A stretch of 64,000 nucleotides of DNA from a virus (Duplodnaviria > Heunggongvirae > Uroviricota > Caudoviricetes): IMG/VR virus record IMGVR_UViG_3300010347_002503, positions 1 through 64,000 of that record, one strand, 5' to 3'. Position numbers and translations under genes: made by a program. The notes beneath the pieces are model-generated. The model worked only from the letters and a program-made list of their open reading frames with translations. It searched no databases and was not told where the DNA came from. Below are positions 11,471 through 28,126 of this stretch, piece after piece; position 1 is the first letter of the stretch; every line of letters begins with the position of its first letter.

Positions 11471-11509
11471 ACCGCTGTGCCAATCTAATAAAACAGCGGT
11501 ATCTTTATT
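11471..11509 (+). terminator. putative terminator hairpin
   Basis: ACCGCTGT...ACAGCGGT 8-bp stem followed by ATCTTTATT. Confidence 0.35.
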
Positions 11510-11582: not shown

Positions 11583-11583
11583 C

Positions 11584-11675: not shown

Positions 11676-11685
11676 CTTTATATAT

Positions 11686-11762
11686 CAGGGTGTAGTTCAG
11701 CTTGGTAGAACGCAACACTGGGGGTGTTGAGGTCGTGGGTTCGAATCCCGCCATCCTGACCA
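11686..11762 (+). tRNA. tRNA-Pro(GGG)
   Basis: Acceptor CAGGGTG/CATCCTG (same as Pro-CGG); arm CAACA-CTGGGGG-TGTTG; TTCGAAT; CCA. Confidence 0.8.
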
Positions 11763-11772
11763 TTTTTTCTGA

Positions 11773-12000
11773 TTGACATGCTCCATGAAGTATGGTATGG
11801 TGTTTTTCATGAAACTGAAAAAAAGTGATATTGGCCGTTGGGCAACTGTAAAATGGGATGACGTGGGAAGAGTTGATTGTTTGATTGTTGATATCAATCA
11901 ATCGTCAAAAACACTAAGGATTTTTGAACCATTTAAGGGAACTTCAACGGTGGGTTTTTCTCAAATTACAGAACTGAGAAAGCACCAGACAGCACAATAG
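11773..12000 (+). CDS. hypothetical protein
   Basis: 75-aa ORF following the tRNA cluster; alternative start MKLKK at 11809. Confidence 0.4.
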   Translation: MTCSMKYGMVFFMKLKKSDIGRWATVKWDDVGRVDCLIVDINQSSKTLRIFEPFKGTSTVGFSQITELRKHQTAQ

Positions 12001-12326
12001 TTCTTTGATGCCCAGTTAAACCGTAAAATCGTGACGAGGATTTTCCTAGATAAAAAGCTCCCGCTAGGTTAAAAAGATGTAGGTCTTATGAGCGTAGGCT
12101 CAAAAAATGGGAGATTTTGACTCGTCTGAATATGGGTAATGATAGCAATTTCCTTGTCCCCGTGGCTGCGAGGGTACAACAAAGCCCAACGGGGTTGGTA
12201 CGTGGAAGTGGACGCACGGAAACGATACGTCGGTTGAAGTCCGACACTGGGCTCCTAATTTTGAAAGTAGAATATGTTCTTTCACAAAAACAAGTTGTTT
12301 TTCCACTTTGAGATACATTTATTGGC

Positions 12327-12851
12327 ATGAACCTGAAATATCCCAAAGAAATGTTGATCCCGCTTGTCAGGGGAAGCGTGAGTATATCCGACGTTATGAG
12401 AAAACTCGGCATTCGACGCTCTGGGGGAAGTCATTCTCACCTTTCCCGAAAACTGAAAGAGTATGAGATTGATACTTCCCATTTCACTGGCAAGACAGCG
12501 GCGAAAGGGAGACCTTCGCCTCGGAGAAAGCATTGGACCGAAATCTTAATTTTACGCACATCTGGAAAACGTCAACACGCCATCCAATTAAGAAGAGCGT
12601 TAATCGAGAGTGGTGTTCCATATCAATGCTCTGAATGTAGATCGGAGCCCGTATGGAGAAACAAAGAACTCCGATTTCAAGTTGACCATTTGAATAAAAA
12701 CTGGTTGGATGACAGGAGAGAAAATTTGAAGTTTCTTTGCCCGAATTGTCATTCACAAACGCCGGGATATAATGGTTCAAAAGGATATGCCGACATAATG
12801 GATTACAATCGGTATCAGCGAGAAAAGAGAAAACAAAAAATGGCACCGTAG
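12327..12851 (+). CDS. HNH endonuclease
   Basis: CxxC...H-N...CxxC core: CSEC...VDHLNKNWLDDRRENLKFLCPNCH. Confidence 0.75.
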   Translation: MNLKYPKEMLIPLVRGSVSISDVMRKLGIRRSGGSHSHLSRKLKEYEIDTSHFTGKTAAKGRPSPRRKHWTEILILRTSGKRQHAIQLRRALIESGVPYQCSECRSEPVWRNKELRFQVDHLNKNWLDDRRENLKFLCPNCHSQTPGYNGSKGYADIMDYNRYQREKRKQKMAP

Positions 12852-12919
12852 CCCAATTGGAAGATGGCAATACGCTTAGAACGTATGTAGTGCAGGTTCG
12901 AATCCTGTCGGTGCTACCA
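12842..12919 (+). tRNA. class-I tRNA with anticodon UAG (Leu codon CUA) but a short 5-nt variable loop
   Basis: Acceptor GGCACCG/CGGTGCT; perfect arm ATACG-CTTAGAA-CGTAT; T GCAGG-TTCGAAT-CCTGT; A73; CCA. Confidence 0.65.
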
Positions 12920-12926
12920 ATTTTAT

Positions 12927-13009
12927 GGCCGTGTGGTGTTAAGCGAAATTTGGAAGAAGCGGTGGTTTCAAAAAATACCCCCTTGGAGGTTCAAATCCTC
13001 TCACGGCTA
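12927..13009 (+). tRNA. atypical tRNA (83 nt, no encoded CCA, extended D region; possible Leu-CAA-like loop TTCAAAA)
   Basis: Acceptor GGCCGTG/CACGGCT and T GGAGG-TTCAAAT-CCTCT; interior not foldable as a standard cloverleaf. Confidence 0.4.
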
Positions 13010-13016
13010 CTACTTT

Positions 13017-13286
13017 ATGGAATTGACCTTAGACGAACGTTGTGTTACGAAGCAAGGAACTTGCTATCGTTCTTTCATTGGCGACTCGGAGACAACCAAA
13101 AAAGAAGTCATCGAGGAACAAGCCAAAATTGCCAAAGCTATCAAAGGGCAAACTGTTGCCATCAACGGAAAGGTTTCAAAAGTACTTGATGCCCGAATTG
13201 GAAAGTATTGCAACTTGGTGAATCATCGTTATTATTTGGAAATTTTAACGGACGAAGAATATGAGCGAACAAAAGAAAACAGTTGA
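13017..13286 (+). CDS. hypothetical protein
   Basis: ORF 12933..13286 trimmed to the first ATG after the tRNA at 12927-13009. Confidence 0.4.
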   Translation: MELTLDERCVTKQGTCYRSFIGDSETTKKEVIEEQAKIAKAIKGQTVAINGKVSKVLDARIGKYCNLVNHRYYLEILTDEEYERTKENS

Positions 13287-13530
13287 GCAGAACGAATTAA
13301 TTGCAACTCGTGTTCCTCCCGGTGACAAGTGGATGCTTGTTGACGACGAAAAGCGAGTTGTCCATCCGAGTCTGACTGATGTTCTTGAAGCATATTTCCG
13401 ACTTCACAAATTCGTGGGTGATTTCCGGATATCCCCGAAAGAAGGTAAGCTTTACGCCATCAAACAAGTGGAAGAAATCATTCCGCCGAAACCCGCCCGA
13501 GTCTTCAACATGTATGGTGATGGAGAATAA
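13261..13530 (+). CDS. hypothetical protein
   Basis: 89-aa ORF in a packed plus-strand series. Confidence 0.4.
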   Translation: MSEQKKTVEQNELIATRVPPGDKWMLVDDEKRVVHPSLTDVLEAYFRLHKFVGDFRISPKEGKLYAIKQVEEIIPPKPARVFNMYGDGE

Positions 13531-13533
13531 TTT

Positions 13534-14115
13534 ATGAGTATTCGACAAAAGGCCAACAAAATCAAAAAAGAGCGTTGCCGCACGTTGATTGCGGTACTCG
13601 AAAACCCCAAAACCATTGAAAATATTGGTTCAGTCATTCGAAACGTTGATGCCCTTGGGGTGAGTAAGTTATACGTAATTGACGGCTACAAATTATTACC
13701 GGATAATTGGCAGGATATGCGTGAGCGGAGAAGCTTAAATAAAATCTCTGCTTCCGCCGTCAAATGGACTTATATCCATCCTTTCAAAACCACAGCGGAA
13801 TGTATCGAACATTTGAAAAGAAAGCATTTCTTGTCGGTAGTAACATCGCCGCACGTAAAAGGTAAAAAGAACGTTTCCCTCGATGAGGCCGATTTCACAC
13901 AGCACCATCTGGCGGTCTGGTTTGGAAACGAAAGTCATGGGATTTCCGACGAAGCCGTTCAAGCTGCGGAATTCTGTGTGAGCATTCCGATGCACGGTAT
14001 CATTGAAAGCTTCAATCTGGGTACATGCTCGGGTATTGTTCTATATGAGGTCACCAAACAGCGAAGACTTTTCCGAAAAAATAAACAGCAGTGCCGAACG
14101 GCTGTAATGGACTAA
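13534..14115 (+). CDS. SpoU/TrmH-family RNA 2'-O-ribose methyltransferase
   Basis: SPOUT motifs ENIGSVIRNVDALGV, VWFGNESHGIS and IPMHGIIESFNLGTCSGIVLYEV. Confidence 0.8.
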   Translation: MSIRQKANKIKKERCRTLIAVLENPKTIENIGSVIRNVDALGVSKLYVIDGYKLLPDNWQDMRERRSLNKISASAVKWTYIHPFKTTAECIEHLKRKHFLSVVTSPHVKGKKNVSLDEADFTQHHLAVWFGNESHGISDEAVQAAEFCVSIPMHGIIESFNLGTCSGIVLYEVTKQRRLFRKNKQQCRTAVMD

Positions 14116-14139
14116 ATCCCGATTCGGCTCCATTTTTAC

Positions 14140-14328
14140 ATGACTTCATTTGTTTTCGAACGACAGAAATATTACGTCACAATGGCAGAAGCAAAGCAAA
14201 AACAACGCCAGAGAGAACTTCAAAGATTAACATCCCGACAGTGTTTCTTAGACATACCATCTGAGGAAGTTGGTAGTGAGCGGGGTGAATGGTGGACTAA
14301 ACGAGTCGGCGGTAACAAGCTCAACTAA
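14140..14328 (+). CDS. hypothetical small protein
   Basis: 62-aa ORF. Confidence 0.3.
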   Translation: MTSFVFERQKYYVTMAEAKQKQRQRELQRLTSRQCFLDIPSEEVGSERGEWWTKRVGGNKLN

Positions 14329-14366
14329 AGTTTCTCATTTCTCTCCATCCAGAATGAGAAACGAAT

Positions 14367-14442
14367 GCTCTCGTAGCTCAATTGGAAGAGTCAGTGCGTC
14401 CTAAGCACTCGGTTGCAGGTTCAAATCCTGCCGGGAGCACCA
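14367..14442 (+). tRNA. tRNA-Arg(CCU)
   Basis: Arm AGTGC-GTCCTAA-GCACT; T GCAGG-TTCAAAT-CCTGC; CCA. Confidence 0.8.
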
Positions 14443-14540
14443 ATTTCGTATGGAAAAGTATCGGAAACTATAACGTTCAAGTAACGGGTGTTTTATGATT
14501 AACGGTGCCGCTCTAACTTCGGAGGCTACTTATTCAAACT

Positions 14541-15002
14541 GTGGCCATAGGTGGATTTTTATTGACAAGTACGGTCCATTTTGCCATACTTGTTCTCTGT
14601 ATAAAAGAATCAGAAAAGAATAGTATGAGAAAGTGGATCAAACAACTGCCGGAAATGAAGAACTGCGGAGTAATAGCGGTGGCGATCATTGCGGAAGTCT
14701 CGGTTGAGGCTGCCGCTGAGGCTATAGGTAAAAAGGGGGCTACATTCACAAAAGACCTTGTCAAGGGTCTCAGAAAATTTGGATTCAAATGTCCAGACCG
14801 TTGTGTTCGAGTTAAATCAAATCAACCCCTTCCCAAATTGGCAATCGGCCATTTGTCCGACCCAAAACGAAAAAACGGCTGGCATTGGATTGTGATCGAT
14901 GGAGACAAAATCTGGGACGGTTTGTTTGGCGATCCCGATGGTAAACCGGTGTATTGGGAATCCGGGTGGAAAATCACATCGTATCTTCCTGTTACGAAAT
15001 GA
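14541..15002 (+). CDS. C39-like (papain-fold) peptidase domain protein
   Basis: Cys motif KNCGVIAVAII and His motif NGWHWIVIDG, resembling Peptidase_C39_2; N-terminal hydrophobic segment. Confidence 0.5.
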   Translation: MAIGGFLLTSTVHFAILVLCIKESEKNSMRKWIKQLPEMKNCGVIAVAIIAEVSVEAAAEAIGKKGATFTKDLVKGLRKFGFKCPDRCVRVKSNQPLPKLAIGHLSDPKRKNGWHWIVIDGDKIWDGLFGDPDGKPVYWESGWKITSYLPVTK

Positions 15003-15013
15003 TATTTATCGTG

Positions 15014-15181
15014 ATGGAAAATGATATTATATCAAAAACGTTTTACTGCCCCAGATGTCAAGCAGTCTTAAAAAAGAAACGACCATCGGACAAATTTCTG
15101 GTGGTAGATAAAGAACAGATTGTTCGGTTATTTTGTCCGTGTGGCTACTATCGGGATGAGAAGGTAAACGAAACCTCTTGA
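15014..15181 (+). CDS. Zn-ribbon mini-protein
   Basis: CPRC...CPCG. Confidence 0.4.
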   Translation: MENDIISKTFYCPRCQAVLKKKRPSDKFLVVDKEQIVRLFCPCGYYRDEKVNETS

Positions 15182-15214
15182 CAAATCTATTGGTTTTGAT
15201 ATAATTGCGGGTAT

Positions 15215-15310
15215 GGTAGGGTGGCAGAGTTTGGCTTATCGCATCCGACTTGAAATCGGAAGTCCCGGCAAAAACCGGGACCGGGGGTTCAAATCCCTCC
15301 CCTACCGCCA
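15215..15310 (+). tRNA. tRNA-Ser(UGA), class II
   Basis: Arm TCCGA-CTTGAAA-TCGGA; variable hairpin CCCGG...CCGGG; TTCAAAT; CCA. Confidence 0.85.
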
Positions 15311-15398
15311 ATTTATGTGGAACGAGCCAAGAACCAGATAAATGCGTGGTTCTTTGTTGTGTATGTCATCGTCATCGAGAACATAAAAACGAACTTAG

Positions 15399-15490
15399 GG
15401 AAGCGTGGCAGAGTCCGGTCTATTGCGACACTTTGCTAAAGTGTTGGGGTGTTACAGCCCCCGCTGGTTCGAATCCAGCCGCTTCCGCCA
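15399..15490 (+). tRNA. tRNA-Ser(GCU), class II
   Basis: Arm ACACT-TTGCTAA-AGTGT; variable hairpin GGGG...CCCC; TTCGAAT; CCA. Confidence 0.85.
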
Positions 15491-15644
15491 ATTCAAATGA
15501 AACCGTACTGTAAAGAAAAGTGTCCAATCACAAAAATACCACTTGGACGAAGGAAGATAGCGGGAATTCGAAAGTAAAACGTCTGCATCGTAGATGTTGT
15601 TTGCGATGGGATAAACACGCCGTAAAGTAGAAAGTAAGAGAACA

Positions 15645-15839
15645 ATGTTTTGGATTGGATTAGCATATTTGGCAATTGGATTCATTAGTGGCGTGTGGAT
15701 TCTTTTAACGCAACTTAATGACATTAAAGGCGTCGGGGAAGTTGTGGTTTGTCTGATTTGTAATATGGTTTTCTGGCCTTTCATATTGATATTGGCGGTG
15801 GCTGCCGGAAAAATGTTCAAAGGTATTGGAGGAAATTGA
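15645..15839 (+). CDS. small membrane protein
   Basis: Two hydrophobic helices. Confidence 0.35.
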   Translation: MFWIGLAYLAIGFISGVWILLTQLNDIKGVGEVVVCLICNMVFWPFILILAVAAGKMFKGIGGN

Positions 15840-16041
15840 ATTTATGCCTTATTGTTCATCATGCGGATCATTGATTCCAGAAGGACAAGGAAACAGTTGT
15901 TCGATGTGTTATGGAGATCCGTGGTATGGCCGGGATGGATATGCCCTGCGAGATTTAGAGCGTCAGATACACGAAGAACAGATTCGTCAACAGGAAATGG
16001 AAGAATATTGGCAGAATCAAGAATCGAATAAGGGCGACTAG
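15826..16041 (+). CDS. Zn-ribbon mini-protein
   Basis: CSSCGS...CSMC. Confidence 0.4.
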   Translation: MEEIEFMPYCSSCGSLIPEGQGNSCSMCYGDPWYGRDGYALRDLERQIHEEQIRQQEMEEYWQNQESNKGD

Positions 16042-16105
16042 TTTATCGGAAGAATGCGTCATTCACACTGACGAGAGACAGGTTCGATTCCTGTGTTGCC
16101 CACCA
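16032..16105 (+). tRNA. tRNA-Val(CAC)
   Basis: Arm CGTCA-TTCACAC-TGACG; T ACAGG-TTCGATT-CCTGT; CCA. Confidence 0.8.
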
Positions 16106-16157
16106 AACTTATGAGTTATAAAGTCAACGAAAGTTTCAACGAAATCATGATGCCGCT

Positions 16158-16469
16158 ATGTTGGGTGAGGTTCCTCAAATGAAAAAAGTAATCTATCTTC
16201 TCATTGTTCTTGTGTGGTTTACCATTGATATGAGAAACACTCTAATAGTGAATCGGCTTCAACGAGAGAATCGAGTTCTCATGACAAATAACGTCAATCT
16301 GGTTCTGTTGAACCAAGCTCTATCTAAGGGCGTGAGTGATATTGCAGATAAACTAATTGAAAAGGCAAAATGGGACGAACAAGTTGCGGCAAAATTTCGT
16401 GAATTTGATTCGCTTATGAAAGGACTATATGGACAAACAAATCAAGAGGTTTCAGGAGCAGTTCGTTGA
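16158..16469 (+). CDS. hypothetical protein (N-terminal TM)
   Basis: 103-aa ORF. Confidence 0.45.
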   Translation: MLGEVPQMKKVIYLLIVLVWFTIDMRNTLIVNRLQRENRVLMTNNVNLVLLNQALSKGVSDIADKLIEKAKWDEQVAAKFREFDSLMKGLYGQTNQEVSGAVR

Positions 16470-16689
16470 ATGTAGTGATGCTGGAATGCACAAACCGGGA
16501 GAACTTCAAAAGTTCAAAGACCATCCGGAAATGCTTCCAGCACCATGGCACAGGGCAGCGAAAATCGTTGCCGAGAAAATGAAGGGAGATCCGGATTTCG
16601 GATTGGCCCCTCTTCTATGTCTCCGTTTTGGCGGTGAGTGCAATTCAGGTAATCCCGGTTGCCGGAAACTGAGAGGATACACAGATTAA
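16429..16689 (+). CDS. hypothetical protein
   Basis: 86-aa ORF with a Cys-rich C-terminus. Confidence 0.4.
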   Translation: MDKQIKRFQEQFVECSDAGMHKPGELQKFKDHPEMLPAPWHRAAKIVAEKMKGDPDFGLAPLLCLRFGGECNSGNPGCRKLRGYTD

Positions 16690-16694
16690 CCAAT

Positions 16695-16768
16695 GGGCTG
16701 TTAGTTTAATAGTAGAATTCATCATTGACACTGATGAGACGGTGGAGCGTAACCACCATAGCCCACCA
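16695..16768 (+). tRNA. tRNA-Val(GAC), non-canonical T-loop AGCGTAA
   Basis: D GTTT-AATAGTA-GAAT; arm CATCA-TTGACAC-TGATG; T GGTGG-AGCGTAA-CCACC; CCA. Confidence 0.6.
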
Positions 16769-16772
16769 CTTT

Positions 16773-17051
16773 ATGACCAAAAAAGAAAAACTCAAAGCAA
16801 TTAATGAACGTCTGAAAGATTTGACGTTGGATAATGAACACATGGTTTCTGTACTTTTGATTGGCCATTATCTCGACAAAATGGCTAAGAAGGGACTTGT
16901 CGAGGCACCTTACTCATTTACAGACATGGGAAGTCGTGTTGCTTCCATTTGTGAAGAGTTTGATTGGGAAGTTACAGACGAAGAAATTCAACAGTTTTGT
17001 GAGGAATTAGTTCCCCCCCGAACAGAGAAACGCTTTTATTTACTTCATTAA
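16773..17051 (+). CDS. hypothetical protein
   Basis: ORF 16725..17051 trimmed to the first ATG after the tRNA. Confidence 0.45.
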   Translation: MTKKEKLKAINERLKDLTLDNEHMVSVLLIGHYLDKMAKKGLVEAPYSFTDMGSRVASICEEFDWEVTDEEIQQFCEELVPPRTEKRFYLLH

Positions 17052-17156
17052 AAAAGAAAGAGACAAAAATGAGTAGTTTACGATCATTGAAAAGACACCT
17101 AAACCCCCTGAATGTTTGGCGTGCAAAACAAAAAGTAATTCGAGAACAAGCAAAAA

Positions 17157-17498
17157 ATGAAAGTCAATCGAAGCAAGAAGAAATTACAAATCCGAGTGAG
17201 ATTGGAGAATCTGGGAACATCGTTTCCGCATCAGAATCTTCGCAAGCTTCTTGATTGGTTGACCGAAAAGGAGACGGAATACATTTCCAAAGGTTTTACT
17301 AATCTGGAGCTTCATTTTGATTCCGACTGGGATGGTCCAAGCGATTTGGTTATTTTTGGAACTCGTGAGGAAACCGAAGAGGAATACAACGCTCGTATGA
17401 GAGCAATTGCTGAGGAAGAACGTCAAGAAGCTTTCAGGATGCAAGAACATATGAAGTTTATCAAGGCGGAAGCAAGAAAACTAGGAATACTGAAATGA
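17157..17498 (+). CDS. hypothetical protein
   Basis: 113-aa ORF; overlaps the alternative 61-aa ORF 17069..17254. Confidence 0.35.
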   Translation: MKVNRSKKKLQIRVRLENLGTSFPHQNLRKLLDWLTEKETEYISKGFTNLELHFDSDWDGPSDLVIFGTREETEEEYNARMRAIAEEERQEAFRMQEHMKFIKAEARKLGILK

Positions 17499-17710
17499 AA
17501 AATAAATGGTTCTACGAAGAGATTCTCCAAAAGGCGGGAGATACGGTTATTGCTAGCGACATTCGTCCAGCTACAAAAGCTGATATTACTAAATCAAGGA
17601 CGCTTCACAAACAAGGCAAATGTCCCCACACAATCATTGTTGATACTGAAGGATGGCCTTATGATGTAAGAAATTGTGCCATTTGCGGAAAAGGATTGGG
17701 AATAGTATGA
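17495..17710 (+). CDS. Zn-binding mini-protein
   Basis: C...H...CAIC; ATGA overlap with the next gene. Confidence 0.45.
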   Translation: MKNKWFYEEILQKAGDTVIASDIRPATKADITKSRTLHKQGKCPHTIIVDTEGWPYDVRNCAICGKGLGIV

Positions 17711-18147
17711 GTAACATTGCCATAGACGATTCAATGGGCGATTTGATTGATGACACTTTGCAATTGGAATTTTTCAAAACACCCATGTACGAACATTTCG
17801 AAATCTATCCTCCTGATCCGAGGAAGGAATTCGAGGCTATCGACAAACCAATGTGGCATCCACTTTATTTTGTCGAATTCACTCGATGGAAGCCGGGGGA
17901 TAAGATGTACTGGCGGCTCTTCAAAAAGAACTTCATTGTTTCCAAGGAAGAATGGAACAAACTGGTTCTGGAAGACCCAGACCGTCTTCATCAATTGACC
18001 CTTACGGGCAACGAATACCACCCCTATCAGTTGGAATGTGGCGTTGTCAATGAACGAGAAGGAGTAGTCGATATGAATACGATGGAATTCCTCAAATTCA
18101 TGGTTGACGCCATCAACGACAGGGCCAGTACCCACGACATGTTCTGA
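17707..18147 (+). CDS. hypothetical protein
   Basis: ATGA-coupled start within ORF 17674..18147. Confidence 0.5.
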   Translation: MSNIAIDDSMGDLIDDTLQLEFFKTPMYEHFEIYPPDPRKEFEAIDKPMWHPLYFVEFTRWKPGDKMYWRLFKKNFIVSKEEWNKLVLEDPDRLHQLTLTGNEYHPYQLECGVVNEREGVVDMNTMEFLKFMVDAINDRASTHDMF

Positions 18148-18197
18148 GAAATGCTGGTGGAAGCCATAGGATGGGCAAAAAAAATCTCAAGATCCCA

Positions 18198-18225
18198 CTT
18201 GACTTTTTACTCAAAACATGTATAG
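18198..18225 (+). promoter_or_regulatory. sigma70-like early promoter TTGACT-N16-TATAGT ahead of a tRNA operon
   Basis: TTGACTTTTTACTCAAAACATGTATAGT, about 20 nt upstream of the tRNA at 18244. Confidence 0.5.
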
Positions 18226-18243
18226 TTATGTGCGTAATGATTA

Positions 18244-18321
18244 TCGGAGTGTAGCACAGCTTGGCGAGTGCGTCTGCTTTGGGAGCAGAAGGTCGTAGGT
18301 TCAAATCCTATCACTCCGACC
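18244..18321 (+). tRNA. tRNA-Pro(UGG)
   Basis: D GCAC-AGCTTGGCGA-GTGC; arm TCTGC-TTTGGGA-GCAGA; TTCAAAT; CCA. Confidence 0.8.
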
Positions 18322-18322
18322 A

Positions 18323-18400
18323 TGCGATTGTGGCACAGCGGCGACTGCGCCTCGTTTACACCGAGGTATCACCACAGGTTCGAGTCCTGTCAATCGCACC
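18323..18400 (+). tRNA. tRNA-Val(UAC)
   Basis: Perfect acceptor GCGATTG/CAATCGC; arm CCTCG-TTTACAC-CGAGG; TTCGAGT; CCA. Confidence 0.7.
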
Positions 18401-18407
18401 AATTTTA

Positions 18408-18481
18408 TGGGGCCGTCATTCAACGGGAGGATACAACTCTGGCAGAGTTGAGATAGGGGTTCGATTCCCCTCGGCTCCACC
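18408..18481 (+). tRNA. tRNA-Ala(GGC)
   Basis: Acceptor GGGGCCG/CGGCTCC (G3:U70); arm CAACT-CTGGCAG-AGTTG; TTCGATT; CCA. Confidence 0.75.
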
Positions 18482-18490
18482 AATTTAGTT

Positions 18491-18952
18491 ATGAAAAACA
18501 AAACAATTATCATTCTGTTGCTTCTGTTGGCTATTCTCACTCTGGGAACCATTGCTATCTCTATGGGAGCATCAGTAACTCTCGCATGGGATGGAAACTG
18601 TGATACGAATGTTATTGGTTATACCCTTTACTATGGCGGGCCAGCTACATCAATCAAAACAAACATTATTCGAGCTTACACAAATGATTGTGGAATTTTC
18701 ATCCCAAACAAAACGAACCTCTATTTCGGGGTGTACACAAACACACTAGAGATTAATGGTCGAACCAATAATATGTGTACCGTGAGCAACCTTACGGCTG
18801 GAGGTCAGTACTATTTTACAATAACGTCCAGAAGTAGAGATGGACTTGAAAGCGATTATGCCAATGAAGTTGGCTATTTGATACCGACAAATCTACCGTC
18901 TGGTATGCCTTCGGCGGTTTTGAATTTTCGGATTATCAAAATTGAACGTTAG
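18491..18952 (+). CDS. secreted FN3-like domain protein
   Basis: Signal peptide; W-D-x-N...GY.LYYG beta-sandwich signature. Confidence 0.5.
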   Translation: MKNKTIIILLLLLAILTLGTIAISMGASVTLAWDGNCDTNVIGYTLYYGGPATSIKTNIIRAYTNDCGIFIPNKTNLYFGVYTNTLEINGRTNNMCTVSNLTAGGQYYFTITSRSRDGLESDYANEVGYLIPTNLPSGMPSAVLNFRIIKIER

Positions 18953-18978
18953 ATTTTAACCTGACTATTTATAGACGT

Positions 18979-19326
18979 ATGAGAAAACTATTGACCACTC
19001 TCGTTCTGGTTCTCACCATCGCCATTACTGCTTTTGGTGAAGACATTTGGTTTACTTGGGATAAAAACCCCGCCAACGAGCTTATTGGCACCTATCGATT
19101 AGAATATATCAAACTTCCAGTGATTACCAATTGGACTTTATTAAGTAACATTCCCGGTACCACTAATGTTGCTGTTGTAAAAGGTGTCCAAGGCGGTTTT
19201 ACTTACAAATTCAGAATATTTGCTCAGAATTCAAAAGGTATTGGAACCAATCTTTCCAATATCATTGAAATTCCAACTAATGCACCAACAACAGTAAGCA
19301 ATTTTAACCTTACTACGCCTCGCTAA
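18979..19326 (+). CDS. secreted FN3-like domain protein (paralog of 18491)
   Basis: Signal peptide; FTWDKNP...YRLEY; preceded by CTATTTATAG. Confidence 0.5.
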   Translation: MRKLLTTLVLVLTIAITAFGEDIWFTWDKNPANELIGTYRLEYIKLPVITNWTLLSNIPGTTNVAVVKGVQGGFTYKFRIFAQNSKGIGTNLSNIIEIPTNAPTTVSNFNLTTPR

Positions 19327-19338
19327 TGCTAATCATCT

Positions 19339-19761
19339 TTGTTCAACTACTATTCTATGGTACATGATTTACCGTTTGGTAAATTCATAGATACCATGAG
19401 AATACAGCATAAATACTTAAGAAATCGTCACTTCCGATTGAAAAATTGGAAGCGCATTCGTAATACCGAACATCCATTCGAGACTGACATGCCTTGGTTT
19501 TTCTATAATTCGACGGAATGTTACTCAGCGGAAAAACAAATTGCCAATCACTTTGAGAGGATTACCAATCATGCTCGTGGCCTAGAAAGTGGTTTTAACC
19601 ATGTAGCACTGAACTACAAAAACGCTCCTTCCGATTATCGCCGTCGTTGTAATGCACGAGATAAGGCAAAGGTTCGTGCGGCGATGCAAAAAATTAACAA
19701 TGGACAATACGAGACCGAACTTCCGGTTTTCAAACAGGATGCGGGTTGGGACTATTGGTAA
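19339..19761 (+). CDS. hypothetical protein
   Basis: 140-aa ORF. Confidence 0.45.
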   Translation: MFNYYSMVHDLPFGKFIDTMRIQHKYLRNRHFRLKNWKRIRNTEHPFETDMPWFFYNSTECYSAEKQIANHFERITNHARGLESGFNHVALNYKNAPSDYRRRCNARDKAKVRAAMQKINNGQYETELPVFKQDAGWDYW

Positions 19762-19779
19762 AAAAGTTGTAGAAATCAC

Positions 19780-19807
19780 TTGATTTTTTTCTGGTTTCTG
19801 ATATAGT
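19780..19807 (+). promoter_or_regulatory. sigma70-like early promoter TTGATT-N16-TATAGT
   Basis: TTGATTTTTTTCTGGTTTCTGATATAGT. Confidence 0.45.
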
Positions 19808-19820
19808 TATTGACGATACT

Positions 19821-19836
19821 ACTAGCCTAGGCTAGT
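19821..19836. promoter_or_regulatory. perfect 16-bp palindrome ACTAGCCTAGGCTAGT (candidate operator)
   Basis: Exact inverted repeat between promoter 19780-19807 and the tRNA at 19843; overlaps a second TTGACG...TAGTGT promoter-like element. Confidence 0.4.
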
Positions 19837-19842
19837 GTGAAA

Positions 19843-19917
19843 GGGGTCATCCGTCTAACGGTAAGACGCCAGCTTTGCAAGCTGGAAATAGGGGTTCGAT
19901 TCCCCTTGGCTCCACCA
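19843..19917 (+). tRNA. tRNA-Ala(UGC)
   Basis: Acceptor GGGGTCA/TGGCTCC; arm CCAGC-TTTGCAA-GCTGG; TTCGATT; CCA. Confidence 0.8.
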
Positions 19918-19923
19918 ATTTAT

Positions 19924-20002
19924 AGCAGGTTGGAGAAGTCTGGCCTATCTCGCAACGCTCATAACGTTGAGAACCTTGGTTCGAATCCAAGACCTGCAAC
20001 CA
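19924..20002 (+). tRNA. tRNA-Met(CAU) (elongator or Ile2-type; A1:A72)
   Basis: D GAGA-AGTCTGGCCTA-TCTC; arm CAACG-CTCATAA-CGTTG; TTCGAAT; CCA. Confidence 0.7.
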
Positions 20003-20167
20003 ATTTTGTGAAGTTTGAATGCCAAGGTAAGAAGCAATATGAGTCTCAGGATGAAGCCAATCGGGAAGCATATCGGTTGATGGTTGAATCCCTGTCGAAC
20101 CAACCAAGTGTTCGGCCTTACAAGTGCAAATATTGCAAGAAATGGCATTTGACTTCTTTTAGATAAT

Positions 20168-20251
20168 GCTGCTGTGGTGGAATGGCAGACACGCCAGCTT
20201 GAGGTGCTGGTGGGGAAACCCGTGAAGGTTCAAATCCTTTCAGCAGCACCA
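20168..20251 (+). tRNA. tRNA-Leu(GAG), class II
   Basis: Perfect acceptor GCTGCTG/CAGCAGC; arm CCAGC-TTGAGGT-GCTGG; variable hairpin GGG-GAAA-CCC; TTCAAAT; CCA. Confidence 0.8.
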
Positions 20252-20256
20252 ATTTT

Positions 20257-20330
20257 GCCGGTGTAGTATAAAAGTATTACACTGCTTTGGTAAAGCAGAG
20301 AAGAGGGAGCGTTACCCTTCACTGGCTCCA
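20257..20330 (+). tRNA. tRNA-Thr(GGU), non-canonical T-loop AGCGTTA
   Basis: Arm CTGCT-TTGGTAA-AGCAG; T GAGGG-AGCGTTA-CCCTT; CCA. Confidence 0.6.
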
Positions 20331-20343
20331 TTTTTCGGAATTG

Positions 20344-20378
20344 GCCTTCATATTTATACGATATGAAGGCATTTTTTT
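20344..20378 (+). terminator. rho-independent terminator whose 3' arm contains the ATG of the downstream ORF
   Basis: GCCTTCATAT-TTATACG-ATATGAAGGC followed by ATTTTTTT; ATG 20363 lies in the stem. Confidence 0.55.
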
Positions 20379-20665
20379 ATGGTTTGACTCAATTCGTTCG
20401 GGATGATACGGGAGCATTATCATCCATGAGATTATTATTTTTGGCATGGGGATTTGCCGCTTTGGTAATTTGGGTAATAATCTGTTTGAAAACAGGTGCT
20501 ATTGCAGCGTTGCCGTGGTCTTTGACTTCGTTCATCATTAGTTTGGTAGGTGGAAAGGTTCTTCAAAGTTGGACCGAGAGCATTGGTCAACCTATAACCC
20601 CATCAGTATCACAACCGAAGATTGCTGTTGACAATACACCGAGAAACGATATAATGATGCCCTGA
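20363..20665 (+). CDS. small membrane protein (2 TM)
   Basis: 100-aa ORF with two hydrophobic helices; start is sequestered in the terminator hairpin. Confidence 0.4.
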   Translation: MKAFFYGLTQFVRDDTGALSSMRLLFLAWGFAALVIWVIICLKTGAIAALPWSLTSFIISLVGGKVLQSWTESIGQPITPSVSQPKIAVDNTPRNDIMMP

Positions 20666-21018
20666 TCTTTGAAATTTTGTCGTAAGCGAGTTCACGCTGG
20701 AAGGTTTGCCACAAGGCATTCACGCACCAGAGGAAGTTCGATACTCTACAGCAGCGGATTGGGAGGGCGCATTCTGAAAAGATCGCCCGAGAACACCACA
20801 ACGTAAGAGCAACCCGAAAAAGGCAAGGGTAGTGCTGCCCGTTATAAAGCCAAGGTTGGGGCACTCCGAATTACAATTTCGGAGCACGTCAAATGACGTG
20901 AGACAAATGTGAACATAAAACAGAATATCGGCTACGGCTGCGACAATATAACTCGATGTAGGAACTTAGTTCTGTAGATATCGAGTACAGGAGCGAGATT
21001 AAATACCTCGCTCCATCT

Positions 21019-21092
21019 GGGGTCATCGTTCAACGGTAGGATAAGTCACTCGCACTGACTAGATAGGGGTTCGATTCCCCTTGGCTCCACCA
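21019..21092 (+). tRNA. tRNA-Ala(CGC)
   Basis: Acceptor GGGGTCA/TGGCTCC; arm AGTCA-CTCGCAC-TGACT; TTCGATT; CCA. Confidence 0.8.
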
Positions 21093-21459
21093 GCTTAAAA
21101 GTTTTGCGTAGTCGCCGGATTGGAGTATTCTTTAACGGCTTGGGCGAAAGTGCCGCATCCCATGGGAAATAATAGCACTGACTACGTATTGGGGGGGTGC
21201 CAGAGAATTGCTGATCAGATGCTCAGATTATTTTGGGAATCCGACCAGCAATTTTTTTCTTGCTTTCTGGGCACTATTCTATTATATGTATGGACAGTTA
21301 AGTGTGCAGTTTAATTCTCGTAGTATGGATACACGAGATCGTCATGGACAAAAGTAGGGTGTTAAGTTCACCTCGAATACCGTGACAGGTGCCGTCACCG
21401 TAATGAAATGACGGCTTTGACGATGGGACAAGATTCTCATTTTACACTTAACTTATTAT

Positions 21460-21546
21460 GGCGGATTGCCAGAACGGTAATGGGCCTGCTTGGAAGGCAG
21501 AGGCACGGTTATCCGTGAACAGGTTCGACTCCTGTATCCGCCGCCA
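21460..21546 (+). tRNA. tRNA-Ser(GGA), class II
   Basis: Perfect acceptor GGCGGAT/ATCCGCC; loop TTGGAAG; variable hairpin CACGG-TTAT-CCGTG; TTCGACT; CCA. Confidence 0.8.
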
Positions 21547-21612
21547 ATTTTAAGATAATAGGTTGAACGTCAATATAAAAAATGTAAGACCTAAGTAATT
21601 TCTGAAACAATT

Positions 21613-21837
21613 ATGAGCACAAAAGCAAAACGAATTGGTGACGTTCAACGGGTTATTAACAAGAACCCGCATTGGGCCGCATTGTCTGAATACAATCATA
21701 TTCGGATTCAGTTTCCTGATGGCTGTGAACGAAGTCTTTTATTGACTGACAACGAATTGAAGCGAGCACTTGAAAGGGCAGACAAGAATCCAGAGGATTT
21801 GCCAAAGGTTTCTTGGCTTCGAGACATTCTCGATTAA
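21613..21837 (+). CDS. hypothetical protein
   Basis: 74-aa ORF between two Ser tRNAs. Confidence 0.45.
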   Translation: MSTKAKRIGDVQRVINKNPHWAALSEYNHIRIQFPDGCERSLLLTDNELKRALERADKNPEDLPKVSWLRDILD

Positions 21838-21839
21838 AC

Positions 21840-21930
21840 GGTAGGTTGGCCGAGTCTGGCTTATGGCACCAGTTTCGAAAACTGGAGTGGAGTAAACCCA
21901 CCGAGGGTTCGAATCCCTCACCTACCGCCA
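21840..21930 (+). tRNA. tRNA-Ser(CGA), class II
   Basis: Perfect acceptor GGTAGGT/ACCTACC; arm CCAGT-TTCGAAA-ACTGG; variable hairpin; TTCGAAT; CCA. Confidence 0.85.
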
Positions 21931-22033
21931 TTTCATACACCGATTTCATATCTTCCAACGGGAAAGAAAAAGTTTCAACATTTCTGTGGAAGTTATGTCA
22001 AACGCCTTTAGAGTTACTGAGAATAAGTTTAAC

Positions 22034-22492
22034 ATGAAACTAAAATTGTTATTGTCATTGGGTTTAGCAATTTCATTGGTGACTTCGGCTGTCGGAGGGG
22101 AAGTCCGAGGAATACGAAATAATAACCCCGGCAATATTAGAAAAAGTAACATCCAATGGAAGGGTGCAATTGGTGACGATGGGGTATTTGTAAAATTCGC
22201 CTCACCAGAATATGGTATTCGTGCTATGGCACGGATTCTCAGGGTGTACAATAACAAATATAAAATAAATACCGTTCGTGGTATTATTTCTCGATGGGCT
22301 CCTACATCTGAGAACCGAACGGATGATTATGTCGCTTTTGTTTCAAAAAAGATTGGAAAAAAACCAGACGAGCCAATAGATATAAACAACAAGCAAGAAC
22401 TTGCAAAGTTAATAACCGCTATCATTCAAAAAGAGGTAGGAAGGGTTCCCTATAATCATGTAACAATTTTGCGGGGTATAGAAAAACAATGA
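22034..22492 (+). CDS. secreted protein with RNNNPGNIR...W.G motif (possible cell-wall-active protein)
   Basis: Signal peptide MKLKLLLSLGLAISLVTSA; conserved NNPGNIR block. Confidence 0.45.
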   Translation: MKLKLLLSLGLAISLVTSAVGGEVRGIRNNNPGNIRKSNIQWKGAIGDDGVFVKFASPEYGIRAMARILRVYNNKYKINTVRGIISRWAPTSENRTDDYVAFVSKKIGKKPDEPIDINNKQELAKLITAIIQKEVGRVPYNHVTILRGIEKQ

Positions 22493-22719
22493 AAGAAGTT
22501 CGTACAATAACGGTTAATAACGAAACAGGGTTGCATTGCCGACCATCGGCATCTTTTGTTAAACTTGCCAACCAATTTGAATCGGATATTACGATTGAAA
22601 AGGATGGTGAATCCGTCAACGGAAAAAGTATTGTCGGGCTTCTCATGCTTGGGGCTGGTAAGGGATCCAAACTTCATATTTTGCCTCTACTGAATAATGG
22701 GCTTGACATTCCCTCCTAA
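22489..22719 (+). CDS. HPr-like phosphocarrier protein (PTS), C-terminally divergent or truncated
   Basis: Aligns with HPr: GLHCRPSASFVK (His15 site) and NGKSIVGLLMLG (Ser46 site); only 76 aa. Confidence 0.6.
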   Translation: MKEVRTITVNNETGLHCRPSASFVKLANQFESDITIEKDGESVNGKSIVGLLMLGAGKGSKLHILPLLNNGLDIPS

Positions 22720-22731
22720 ATGTGCTAGGAT
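22703..22731 (+). promoter_or_regulatory. sigma70-like promoter TTGACA-N17-TAGGAT
   Basis: TTGACATTCCCTCCTAAATGTGCTAGGAT upstream of ORF 22753. Confidence 0.35.
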
Positions 22732-22752
22732 GCCCTTACAAAGTAGAACACT

Positions 22753-22947
22753 ATGAACTTAAATACAACGGTTTTCGTGATTATTTTTTTATTGACGATT
22801 ATCTTTTTGGCACCACTCGCTTTGATTTGGGCATTTAATACCCTCTTTTCTTTTTCCATTGCTTTTACAGGAAAAACTTGGCTGGCAGCTTTAGTCCTCC
22901 TGATGGCTACAGGAGGAATTAAAGTATCTCTCTCAGCCAAAAATTAG
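22753..22947 (+). CDS. small membrane protein
   Basis: 64 aa with two hydrophobic helices. Confidence 0.4.
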   Translation: MNLNTTVFVIIFLLTIIFLAPLALIWAFNTLFSFSIAFTGKTWLAALVLLMATGGIKVSLSAKN

Positions 22948-22963
22948 AGTAAACCAATCCCAT

Positions 22964-23248
22964 ATGGGAAGAAAAAAACAAAAAACCAATGAAGCCGCCC
23001 CTGTTTCTCCACAGGGGACTACGGTCAAACCGGAGAACCCAGAATCCAAAGAATCTCGCTATGTCGTCGTTCGTGACGGATATAGAGTATCATCTAACGA
23101 GTATTCTGATCCAAACGACCAACAAGCAATTGCCGAGTTAGAGTTCTGGAAACTGGTAGAAAAAAACCATTCATGGGGAGCACCAGTGCTCATCGTGAAG
23201 TATGATAATAAACTCCACCGAGTTTGGGACTATGGGACTGAACGATAA
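22964..23248 (+). CDS. hypothetical protein
   Basis: 94-aa ORF. Confidence 0.45.
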   Translation: MGRKKQKTNEAAPVSPQGTTVKPENPESKESRYVVVRDGYRVSSNEYSDPNDQQAIAELEFWKLVEKNHSWGAPVLIVKYDNKLHRVWDYGTER

Positions 23249-23471
23249 ACTCAAAGCGGCGGCTACGCCAGTGGCCATTGATAAACTGCTCCTTGAGTCC
23301 GTTGAACTAAAGGACGCATCACCAAAAACAAAACGACGTTGGAAATATGTTGCTGCACGCCGTTTGAAAGAACTACAACAGATTCAAGAAGCAAAAGCTG
23401 CTTCCGACAAGAAAGCTGAGAATGCTGAAAAAAGCAATCGGTCAAACAAGGGAAAAAAGCAAAAGAAATAA
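23202..23471 (+). CDS. hypothetical protein (Lys-rich C-terminus)
   Basis: 89-aa ORF followed by a strong terminator. Confidence 0.45.
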   Translation: MIINSTEFGTMGLNDKLKAAATPVAIDKLLLESVELKDASPKTKRRWKYVAARRLKELQQIQEAKAASDKKAENAEKSNRSNKGKKQKK

Positions 23472-23490
23472 TTACATAACTATTTCACAT

Positions 23491-23530
23491 AACGCAGTCT
23501 TCTGAAAAGGAGGCTGCGTTTTTTTGTTGT
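23491..23530 (+). terminator. rho-independent terminator
   Basis: ACGCAGTCTTC...GGAGGCTGCGT stem followed by TTTTTTTGTTGTT. Confidence 0.65.
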
Positions 23531-23567
23531 TATATTCGACAACAAGCTATTTATGAAGTAGAACTTT

Positions 23568-23927
23568 ATGGCGATCCGTATAAAAAAATCAGGCCAAGAA
23601 AATCAGCCGTATGTTCTACCTGCTGATAATAAAGAGTTACAGGCTTTTGTTGACAAGTACAAGGTTGACATGACGGAACAAGTGGTATCTTCTATTGAAT
23701 TCGCCATCAACCATAAACTTCCAATCATTGAGGTGTTTCAGTTCAAAGACTCAAAGTTCGTTGTCACCGTTTGTCCGAAAGAGTTTGATATCAACCTTGA
23801 GGCAATTTACAAGTACTATCTGGAAACCGAACAGTATGAACTGTGCGGACGGGTAGCCAAGTTGCGGAATAAACTCAAAGCACAACTGAATGAAAAAAAG
23901 AAAAAAACTCCTACTAGAACAAAATGA
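23568..23927 (+). CDS. hypothetical protein
   Basis: 119-aa ORF. Confidence 0.5.
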   Translation: MAIRIKKSGQENQPYVLPADNKELQAFVDKYKVDMTEQVVSSIEFAINHKLPIIEVFQFKDSKFVVTVCPKEFDINLEAIYKYYLETEQYELCGRVAKLRNKLKAQLNEKKKKTPTRTK

Positions 23928-24648
23928 AAATCCACAGCCCAACCCTCCATATGACAAGAGTCCAATCATACCTCAACGAGAAAAACTACGTATTAATCTT
24001 GACATATTTCAACGCCAACTAACTCCTAAACAGCAATCATTCCTAGACTTAGCTCTAGACAAACAATCTAAACTCATTTTTGTCTCCGGACCAGCCGGAA
24101 CGGCAAAAACGTATCTGTCTGTACAGGCGGCTCTCACAATGATTAGTAATAAACGTGTCAGTGATTTGATTTACGTTCGAAGTGTAGTCGAAAGTGCCGA
24201 AACCAAAATGGGATTCTTACCGGGAGAAGTCGTAGATAAACTGGCCCCGTTTTTGGCCCCTATGATGGAAAAAGTCGAAGAACTTCTTCCCAAAAATCAG
24301 GTTGATTTACTCAAAAAAGAAGAGCGAATTTCGGGATTTCCAGTGGGGCATCTCAGGGGTAGAAACTGGAATGCCAAAGTTATTATTGGTGATGAGGCTC
24401 AAAATATGACAGAAAAAGAGCTTATCACTTTAATAACCAGAACTGGCGAATTTGCCAAAGTATTCATCATTGGAGACCCAGAACAGTCGGACATAAACGG
24501 AAAAAGTGGTTTTATAAAAATGATTTCTCGCTTCGATGATGAGGAGGCCAGAGAGAACGGAATTCACGTTTTTCGGTTTGACGATGATGACATCGTTCGT
24601 AGCGGTTTGGTGAGATTTATCTCAAAACGATTAAAAAAGGTTGTTTGA
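23890..24648 (+). CDS. phoH: PhoH-like ATPase
   Basis: Walker A GPAGTAKTYL and PhoH signature IIGDPEQSD. Confidence 0.85.
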   Translation: MKKRKKLLLEQNENPQPNPPYDKSPIIPQREKLRINLDIFQRQLTPKQQSFLDLALDKQSKLIFVSGPAGTAKTYLSVQAALTMISNKRVSDLIYVRSVVESAETKMGFLPGEVVDKLAPFLAPMMEKVEELLPKNQVDLLKKEERISGFPVGHLRGRNWNAKVIIGDEAQNMTEKELITLITRTGEFAKVFIIGDPEQSDINGKSGFIKMISRFDDEEARENGIHVFRFDDDDIVRSGLVRFISKRLKKVV

Positions 24649-24684
24649 CCGATATGTATAGGGTGTCACTCTACGTAGAAATAT

Positions 24685-25806
24685 ATGGCCAATAGACGTG
24701 TATCTGAACTCAATGAACTTCTGTCAACGCAAGTTGCCGCATCTGACTTGTTTTTGATTACAGACGTTAGTAACGTTGAGTCTAAGAAAATTAAAGCGTC
24801 CGAGTTACGAACGTTTGCACTGAACGGAACGTCAAGTTATACTTTAGCTTGCCTTACTTCCAGTTATGCTCTCTTTGCTCTCTCGGCATCATGGGCACCC
24901 GGTGCAGTATCCGCATCATATGCTCTTTCAGCTTCCTATGCTGATTGGGCCAAGACGGCTTCTTACGTTATATCAGCATCGTATGCATTATCGTCTTCTT
25001 ATGCATTCCGTTCATTTTGGTCTGAAACGGCTTCATATGCTTTAACTTCCTCTGTGCAATTGGTTATTTCCAGTGGTCTTGCAAACTATGCTGATACAGC
25101 TTCGTATTTGCTCTATGTACCCGGAAGAAACAACGGCACTGCTTCCCATGCCATGTCGGCATCAAGAGCCTTTGTTTCCAATACAGCAGACTTTTTGAAT
25201 TATGTTGCCGGAACCCCCAACGGTACCGCATCATATTCCATGACGGCTTCATTAGCCAGAACGGCGTCATTTTTGAGATATAACGGTTCTTTCAATGGAA
25301 CGGCGTCATATTCCATCCGATCCGACACTTGTCGAATGGCCGATTCCGCATCCACTGCGGATAGAACAGGTAACGCATTTCTGTTTAGAGAGTTTCCAAT
25401 CGTAACATCAAGTCTAGTCAACGACCAAACCGCTTCTTTCGGATGGATGCAATTTTCAGCATCTAATGGACCAGTTAAAGTTTCCATGGAAGCATGGGGA
25501 GATGTTCAAATCCCAATTAACGATTACTACGATTCCAGTGGCTCAATTCAACTTCATATGGATGGAACTGCTGGCCTTTATAACCTTGACAGATCAACGC
25601 TCAGAGGGTATTACACGGGCTCAAATACTCAAGGAACGGGATCAATAATCTGTCCATTTATTTTGAAGAGTCAATTTACAGTTATCCCGATTCCTCAAAG
25701 ATTTTCGGGATCTGTTAGGGCCTATAATGGAATTAGAATTTATACTGGAAGTCGTCAAGTACAAGCAATAGTTCGAGCGACAACCGATATTTTTGTGGAC
25801 GAATAA
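24685..25806 (+). CDS. tail-fibre-like protein with SASYA-type repeats
   Basis: Repeated SASYALSASYA/TASYV units; N-terminus MANRRVSELNELLS shared with the next gene. Confidence 0.55.
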   Translation: MANRRVSELNELLSTQVAASDLFLITDVSNVESKKIKASELRTFALNGTSSYTLACLTSSYALFALSASWAPGAVSASYALSASYADWAKTASYVISASYALSSSYAFRSFWSETASYALTSSVQLVISSGLANYADTASYLLYVPGRNNGTASHAMSASRAFVSNTADFLNYVAGTPNGTASYSMTASLARTASFLRYNGSFNGTASYSIRSDTCRMADSASTADRTGNAFLFREFPIVTSSLVNDQTASFGWMQFSASNGPVKVSMEAWGDVQIPINDYYDSSGSIQLHMDGTAGLYNLDRSTLRGYYTGSNTQGTGSIICPFILKSQFTVIPIPQRFSGSVRAYNGIRIYTGSRQVQAIVRATTDIFVDE

Positions 25807-27637: not shown

Positions 27638-28126
27638 ATGAATAGTCTAGTTCGTTATCAACGTCCGTCCTTCCCTTCATTCTTTGACCCAGACTTCTTC
27701 GGTCCTACCGATGCATTACTGGACAGAGTATTATCACAAGTATTTCCTGAATTCACGACGGTATTCGGCACGAAAGCATTTGAATCTGCTGCGTACCCAA
27801 AAGTAGATATTCGGGAAACAGAAAAGGAATTCATCATTGAAGCCGAGATTCCCGGTCTTTCCAAAGATCAGGTAAGAGTCGAAGTCAAGGATGATATTCT
27901 AGTTATCAAAGGAGAAAAGCGTTCCGAAGACAAGAAAGAAGGAAAGTACCATGTTCAGGAAATTAAACGTTCTTCGTTTGTACGGTCTTACACCCTTCCA
28001 CCCGACCTAGTAGATAAAAATACGGTAGAGGCGAAATTCCAAGATGGTGTTCTGGAAGTGAAGGTTCAAAAAGTAAAACCAACCCCGCCTCCAAAACCCG
28101 ATGTCAAGGTAATCGACATCAAATAA
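27638..28126 (+). CDS. small heat-shock protein (Hsp20/alpha-crystallin)
   Basis: Alpha-crystallin domain architecture (beta-strand-rich core with an A-x-F..GVL.V motif), similar to cyanophage Hsp20. Confidence 0.75.
   Translation: MNSLVRYQRPSFPSFFDPDFFGPTDALLDRVLSQVFPEFTTVFGTKAFESAAYPKVDIRETEKEFIIEAEIPGLSKDQVRVEVKDDILVIKGEKRSEDKKEGKYHVQEIKRSSFVRSYTLPPDLVDKNTVEAKFQDGVLEVKVQKVKPTPPPKPDVKVIDIK

Follow-up and report, generated by a model that had tools for sequence, protein, structure and literature searches.

A probably decaying deletion-plus-frameshift allele of a conserved HPr gene in a large tailed phage

The window analysed here, a stretch of 64,000 nucleotides (nt) covering positions 1 to 64,000 of the IMG/VR virus record IMGVR_UViG_3300010347_002503 (Caudoviricetes), belongs to a large phage. 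It contains an open reading frame (ORF) of 76 amino acids (aa) that encodes a truncated HPr (ptsH-like) protein, a phosphocarrier of the phosphotransferase system (PTS; Table 1). A first-pass annotation had read this ORF as HPr-like, with counterparts of His15 and Ser46, and the identification is borne out by profile searches, solved structures and alignment. The match to PF00381, which the annotation had named as a check, is significant (E=2.7e-22, 79.1 bits against a gathering score of 23), NCBIfam TIGR01003 scores 75.1 bits (cut-off 47.9), and 33 solved HPr, Crh or NPr chains are matched, with the Thermoanaerobacter HPr structures 3le1 and 3le5 the best (E about 5e-15). Within the active-site motif GLHCRP, His16 (codon 22534..22536) and Arg18 correspond to His15 and Arg17 in the alignments with 3le1 and other solved HPrs. 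The segment NGKSIVGLLMLG (GKSIVGLLMLG) holds Ser47 (codon 22627..22629), which aligns with Ser46 of the solved HPrs and occupies a position that is invariant across the phage and verrucomicrobial homologues. All equivalog models remain below their cut-offs, the best being NF010354 with 64.4 bits (cut-off 123), and the NPr model gives 34 bits (cut-off 119).

The homology stops short of the end of the ORF. The Pfam match covers residues 5–64, equivalent to positions 3–61 of the 81 in the profile, and leaves positions 62–81 unmatched; every profile and structure match ends at residues 62–65, and the last 12 residues, LPLLNNGLDIPS, match nothing. The complete HPr fold is an open-faced sandwich of four strands and the helices A, B and C, and in the window protein helix C is gone.

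Full-length HPr proteins (88–101 aa) are encoded by at least 30 related phage lineages. The same syntenic site upstream of PhoH was confirmed for 16 full-length copies (loci including L011–L016, L017–L021, L023 and L182–L184, with L016–L021 being six IMG/VR viral contigs). The common gene order is an endolysin-like gene, HPr, small ORFs, a 119-aa ORF, PhoH, ORFs of about 374 and about 550 aa, and HSP20, and across the syntenic loci L011–L021 PhoH is 59–94% identical to that of the window. The nearest other HPr proteins are 62–75% identical to the window protein over its first 64 residues, the complete ones having 90–99 aa, and the closest intact protein, P0002, is 75% identical. More broadly, the orthologues at this site (P0005, P0003, P0009, P0017 and P0022 among others; L011–L023 and L182–L184) are 49–75% identical over residues 1–64 and share the downstream promoter and PhoH block with the window, and GLHCRP is common to the closest subclade. 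They differ in having 88–101 aa and a confidently predicted helix C, whereas the window copy is 58–67 nt shorter and frameshifted. Profile searching added about 25 full-length phage-type sequences in the same 88–101 aa range, many with GLHCRP or GMHCRP. An apparent second 76-aa form, P0034, was rejected because its gene call begins at the internal Met16 of the full-length L023 protein.

Helix C, with the conserved pattern G-x-D-A...L..L....F, is found in every intact homologue, about 40 from phages and at least 80 from Verrucomicrobiota; in the HPrs of the syntenic phage loci it reads A.G.DA..A...L..L....F. Among the intact phage copies synonymous sites are saturated (pS 0.54–0.98) while pN is 0.04–0.41, and L016 compared with L023 gives a dN/dS of 0.04. 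These values argue that the intact phage HPr is under purifying selection and is not a passenger gene. In the subclade nearest the window the active His is directly followed by Cys (G-L/M-H-C-R-P, codons 22534..22539 in the window), and Ala takes this place in the deeper phage relatives and in all verrucomicrobial HPrs; a thiol beside the phospho-histidine might influence the chemistry or the redox sensitivity of the site.

Comparison of the window with these relatives locates the difference between two anchors. On the left, the alignment is good through K-L-H-I64 (22669..22680), where Ile64 is the last aligned residue before one long gap. On the right, a promoter of the form TTGAC(A/T)-16/17 nt-TAnnnT, often with TG before it, lies downstream of HPr in every relative examined; the TTGAC(A/T) box follows HPr immediately in most of them, with a small inserted ORF between the two in L014 and L015. 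The gene end and the promoter are fused in L016, L182, L183 and L184, where the HPr stop codon TGA sits inside the -35 hexamer TTGACA. Measured from the ATG to this TGA (22704..22706 in the window), the four relatives have 273–285 nt, in frame, versus 215 nt in the window (2 mod 3), and the window shortfall of 58–67 nt is always 1 mod 3 once one extra N-terminal codon is allowed for. Likewise, the Ile64 codon is separated from the -35 box by 22 nt in the window and by roughly 80–95 nt in the relatives. The exact breakpoints of the deletion are approximate. The window ORF runs across the -35 box and stops at a TAA (22717..22719) within the promoter spacer.

Read in frame +2, the DNA of 22681..22719 gives YFASTE*WA* (asterisks are stops; TAA at 22695..22697 and TGA at 22704..22706), which resembles the true C-termini DFVTSVENRA* of L182 and DFLIPVESCS* of L183. 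The resemblance is suggestive of a deletion inside the gene, after which its extreme 3' end stayed behind out of frame. We conclude that there was a net out-of-frame deletion because of the two synteny anchors and the frame arithmetic, not because of this 3'-end resemblance. When the 64-kb window was searched in all frames with five C-terminal peptides (tblastn), helix C peptides gave chance hits alone (best E=0.06), none of them near the locus. A simple frameshift that keeps helix C, a split gene and a translocated segment were rejected on this ground, since helix C is encoded nowhere in the window. From these comparisons, an origin of the window allele by deletion plus frameshift is very likely. 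The first-pass annotation was therefore right that the protein has 76 aa and has lost its last helix, but the tail that it took for a divergent C-terminus is frameshift read-through. It had also held that a frameshifted pseudogene would undo the proposal; the net loss relative to syntenic orthologues does make this a pseudogene-like allele, and the derivation from HPr stands.

Structure prediction with AlphaFold, at comparable alignment depths (13 and 10 sequences), is in keeping with the loss of helix C. The 76-aa form has a mean predicted local distance difference test score (pLDDT) of 69.9 and a predicted template modelling score (pTM) of 0.56, with strands at residues 5–8, 32–38, 41–44 and 61–66, helices at 21–28 and 48–54, and no helix after residue 66; residues 67–76 form a low-confidence coil. 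The intact P0005 reaches a pLDDT of 89.1 and a pTM of 0.78, and its helix C spans residues 72–85. The predicted tail shows no new helix in place of the lost one that the first-pass annotation had described as replaced. AlphaFold confidence is not a prediction of stability. Established HPr structures show one face of the sheet covered by helix C packed together with helix A, and the helices A and B, with the His and Ser, form the contact surface for enzyme I, HprK/P and regulators. On these structural grounds, the loss of helix C should expose much of the hydrophobic core.

Two further disruptions of the gene were found in related phages, each at the same site and each with an independent inactivating lesion. 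L185 (P0007, 66 aa) is L012 at 100% identity minus 116 nt, removed between 7-nt direct repeats CGAATTT; the deletion takes codons 64–91 and the -35 box, and its left breakpoint lies within a few nt of that of the window. The left end of the L185 deletion falls within a perfect 12-nt palindrome, AAATTCGAATTT, and the intact and 116-nt-deleted alleles occur in the sister assemblies GCA_020049655.1 and GCA_020049755.1 with flanks that are otherwise identical (L012 about 2815..2935). In L186 (796..1073) and L187 (418..695), which encode P0013, 1 nt has been lost from an A-run at about codon 40 (GAAAAG to GAAAG), leaving ORFs of 43 and 40 aa; this lesion is present in two independent samples. These lesions differ in kind from that of the window, one being a repeat-flanked deletion that includes the -35 box and the other a single-nucleotide loss. 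Three independent lesions among roughly 40 lineages fit an accessory gene, of use in most settings but dispensable in some.

The cellular relatives point to Verrucomicrobiota. Among 185,579 species genomes, the best 80 hits are almost all from this phylum (Verrucomicrobiales, Akkermansiaceae, Pedosphaera, Limisphaerales and Chthoniobacter) and are 54–70% identical over residues 5–65, and a metagenome scan returned the same sequence type as the verrucomicrobial HPrs; candidates in these homologue scans were pre-selected by peptide patterns, up to 600 stretches. A neighbour-joining tree, built without bootstrap, places the phage HPrs together, beside the verrucomicrobial ones. A single capture, with vertical inheritance from then on, would fit the tree, and synteny suggests the same. 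The homologous ptsH of Rubritalea spongiae lies between hprK and ptsI, that of a Limisphaerales genome follows lptB and hprK, and that of Luteolibacter sits between menD-like and leuB-like genes. Since hprK and ptsI accompany ptsH in Rubritalea and Limisphaerales, likely hosts have both of the kinases that act on HPr. The verrucomicrobial proteins (for example those of Rubritalea spongiae, Limisphaerales, Luteolibacter and Akkermansia) belong to the same family as the window protein and share its regions G-[LI]-H-x-R-P-[SA]-[AS]-x-F-V-K and N-G-K-S-I-[MVL]-G-L. The window protein differs from them in being phage-borne, in having Cys for Ala after the His, in the absence of helix C (about 25 residues) and in its 12-residue frameshift tail, with no hprK or ptsI nearby. 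Crh of Bacillus subtilis is among the best PDB matches (E about 5e-13). Like NPr (PtsO), Crh is a purely regulatory HPr-fold paralogue with no role in sugar transport. Crh retains the entire fold without His15; in the window protein the His is present and helix C is missing.

We propose that a host ptsH was captured by an ancestor of this group of large tailed phages, most probably from a Verrucomicrobiota host, and settled at a fixed site that has an endolysin-like gene on its left and, on its right, a sigma-70-type promoter, a small membrane protein and then PhoH. In most lineages HPr is still intact and under purifying selection. In the window lineage, a deletion of 58–67 nt from the stretch that links the Ile64 codon to the -35 box has taken away the last part of strand 4 together with the whole of helix C and has thrown the gene out of frame; translation then continues for 12 codons, across what is left of the 3' sequence and across the -35 box, to the TAA in the spacer. 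The predicted 76-aa product keeps His16, Ser47 and the helices A and B, but of the three helices that shield the hydrophobic side of the sheet it has only two. With helix C lost, we infer that the product is most likely unstable and either non-functional or strongly hypomorphic. Taken as a whole, we consider it probable that the ORF is a decaying deletion-plus-frameshift allele of a conserved phage HPr gene. The window copy itself is likely to be non-functional or strongly impaired, and its lower AlphaFold confidence may hint at instability; that it keeps some activity, for example as a decoy, we think distinctly less likely.

Could the truncation instead be an error of sequencing or assembly, with the real gene full length? 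The junction does lie in an AT-rich stretch, and beyond this the suggestion is a general one. The identical 76-aa protein (P0001) was found on 14 contigs from several samples in the European Nucleotide Archive (ENA), JGI and Logan assemblies, so that the same 231-nt ORF and flanks come from different runs and assemblers; a loss of 58–67 nt is beyond homopolymer error, and the nearest intact allele among 5.8 billion proteins is only 75% identical, with none closer. An artefact is thus hardly credible. Eight of the 10 loci fetched are 100% identical to the window, and L003 and L004 differ from it by 35–37 single-nucleotide polymorphisms (SNPs), all within 24591..24820; the HPr region is the same in all 14 contigs. 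This SNP cluster of 230 nt runs from the end of PhoH into the next gene, a 373-aa ORF (24685..25806) of which it covers the first 45 codons. The ORF is rich in Ser, Ala and Tyr with repeated SASYA-like motifs and is probably a fibre or receptor-binding gene; the cluster looks like a recombination boundary. The 14 copies are essentially one genotype and therefore carry no independent evolutionary information. Nor is the gene likely to be a piece of bacterial chromosome, whether host flank or mis-binned sequence. HPr is overwhelmingly a cellular protein, and the nearest cellular homologues reach 70% identity. However, the gene has phage neighbours on both sides, all on one strand (a 37-tRNA array, the endolysin-like gene, PhoH and baseplate genes), in line with the phage origin stated in the first-pass annotation; the same arrangement recurs in the six IMG/VR viral contigs and in other phage contigs of up to 139 kb, and the verrucomicrobial context differs (hprK-ptsH-ptsI or menD-ptsH-leuB). 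We regard a bacterial origin of the fragment as very improbable.

A harder question is whether the short protein still has a function. Several observations weigh against simple decay. All 22 of the 22 phage-HPr-invariant positions within residues 1–64 are kept, with no sign of further decay, so that either the deletion is recent or the stump is still constrained; the ATG and the coupling to the upstream gene through an ATGA overlap are preserved; and the short genotype is widespread. In the AlphaFold model, residues 1–66 retain the native strand-helix topology, and Foldseek superposes this short model on solved HPr structures across about 62 columns (TM 0.56–0.62, root mean square deviation about 3 Å). 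Nearly the same 63 residues survive in L185, perhaps a hint that a short form is tolerated or favoured. In addition, the 27 nt before the -35 box do not resemble the 3' ends of relatives significantly (p about 0.14 against random 27-mers of the window, 0.24 against shuffles). Most of these points would equally favour a functional mini-HPr, in which the 64-residue core acts as a decoy or phosphate sink for enzyme I, HprK/P or HPr-binding regulators, perhaps stabilised by dimerization or by a partner; the HPr family is known to domain-swap, and Crh and F29W HPr dimers are among the PDB matches. Against this proposal, helix C is universal among the intact phage and verrucomicrobial homologues, the tail is read-through and not selected sequence, the pLDDT is about 19 points lower than that of the intact protein, and the 14 copies show nothing of selection on a short form. 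The third allele, broken at codon 40, speaks for a gene that some lineages can simply do without. We therefore hold a functional mini-HPr to be unlikely. Still less probable is a convergent decoy without helix C, which would draw on the window and L185 deletions beginning within the same few nt and keeping the complete face for enzyme I, HprK and regulators. Such a protein would jam the regulatory PTS of the host, either by non-productive binding of enzyme I or HprK/P or by being phosphorylated yet unable to pass the phosphate on.

For the intact orthologues, the first-pass suggestion that a phage HPr could hijack host carbon signalling is a reasonable hypothesis; for the window copy it is doubtful. 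We infer that an intact phage HPr, co-expressed with the endolysin-like gene at the end of a tRNA-rich region, would enter the enzyme I/HprK-HPr relay of the host. There it would alter the phosphorylation-dependent read-out of phosphoenolpyruvate/pyruvate and of ATP/fructose bisphosphate status, and so bias carbon and energy signalling during infection. Among the 51 other window ORFs scanned, no other PTS component (HprK, enzyme I or EIIA) was found.

The surroundings of the gene are those of a phage genome. The upstream endolysin-like gene and HPr are probably translationally coupled; the true start of the former may be an internal codon, and gene callers give it 152–165 aa. The small membrane-like protein past the promoter was recovered by tblastn in L011, L012, L013, L016 and L023, and the DNA alignment agrees. 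The promoter at 22703 is accepted because it is conserved across the phages, not from a count of sites: promoter-like sites in 4001..24000 are not in excess (44 versus 37 ± 7 in shuffled sequence). In the same region, ten of the 11 strongest sigma-70-like sites (at least 10 of 12 matches) lie on the + strand, which is the coding strand, and perfect TTGACA-16-TATAAT sites occur at 15178 and 20628. The complement of 37 tRNA genes is unusually rich for a phage and includes an odd 96-nt 'tRNA-???' with a two-base anticodon call (10321..10416). Farther downstream are baseplate wedge proteins (gp6-like phrog_219 and gp25), a DnaG primase, homing endonucleases of the LAGLIDADG and HNH types, and T5orf172; elsewhere the window encodes a SpoU-type methylase, a Band_7/SPFH protein and a papain-like peptidase. 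A blastn search of INPHARED found no deposited phage similar in DNA, with tRNA matches only.

Table 1. Coordinates of the HPr allele, its parts and the neighbouring features in the window.
Feature	Position	Strand	Basis or remark
37 tRNA genes with small ORFs between	4277..21930	+	ARAGORN; directly upstream of the HPr operon
Upstream gene: signal-peptide-like N-terminus and endolysin/transglycosylase-like domain	21986..22492	+	phrog_873, E=3.5e-51; left synteny anchor
Truncated HPr (ptsH-like) allele, whole ORF	22489..22719	+	ATG to TAA, 76 aa; PF00381, TIGR01003 and PDB matches
HPr-homologous part, codons 1–64	22489..22680	+	Strand 1, helix A, strands 2 and 3, helix B, strand 4; from Pfam match, alignments, AlphaFold secondary structure and Foldseek
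Deletion junction CATATTT	22674..22680	+	DNA alignments, 3' end comparison, frame analysis
Neo-tail LPLLNNGLDIPS and TAA stop	22681..22719	+	Read-through after frameshift
Sigma-70-like promoter TTGACA-17 nt-TAGGAT, TG upstream	22703..22731	+	Serves the next gene; conserved across relatives
Small hydrophobic membrane-like protein, 64 aa	22753..22947	+	First gene past the promoter; right synteny anchor
PhoH-like ATPase	23890..24648	+	PF02562, E=1.7e-47; downstream synteny marker in all related phage contigs
HSP20 small heat-shock protein	27638..28126		Downstream of HPr
Fused SbcD/SbcC-like nuclease	57009..60236		Downstream of HPr

HPr is a textbook protein family, of which the window encodes a damaged member. 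Taken alone, the window ORF matters little, being most likely a gene in decay. The broader result is a group of large tRNA-rich phages with a syntenic HPr that appears to be under purifying selection and has its nearest cellular kin in Verrucomicrobiota. Among 50,697 deposited phage records, 25 have any HPr-like match, and most of these 25 are faecal fragments without annotation or records with bacterial contamination; a full-text literature search for phage-encoded HPr or ptsH found nothing relevant, in agreement with the first-pass remark that the gene is rarely reported in phages. Thus, the conserved syntenic phage HPr family appears to be undescribed. The three independent disruptions show that the gene is conditionally dispensable and provide natural loss-of-function alleles for comparison. 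The similarity of the phage HPrs to those of Verrucomicrobiota also serves as a host prediction for an uncultured phage group, and phages of Verrucomicrobiota are, to our knowledge, barely known. Were the improbable decoy proposal true, this would be the first known phage group with its own HPr reprogramming a Verrucomicrobiota host. If the intact copies are active, these phages would place a part of their own in the host relay for central carbon and energy signalling, and phage HPr would then be a regulatory rather than a metabolic auxiliary gene.

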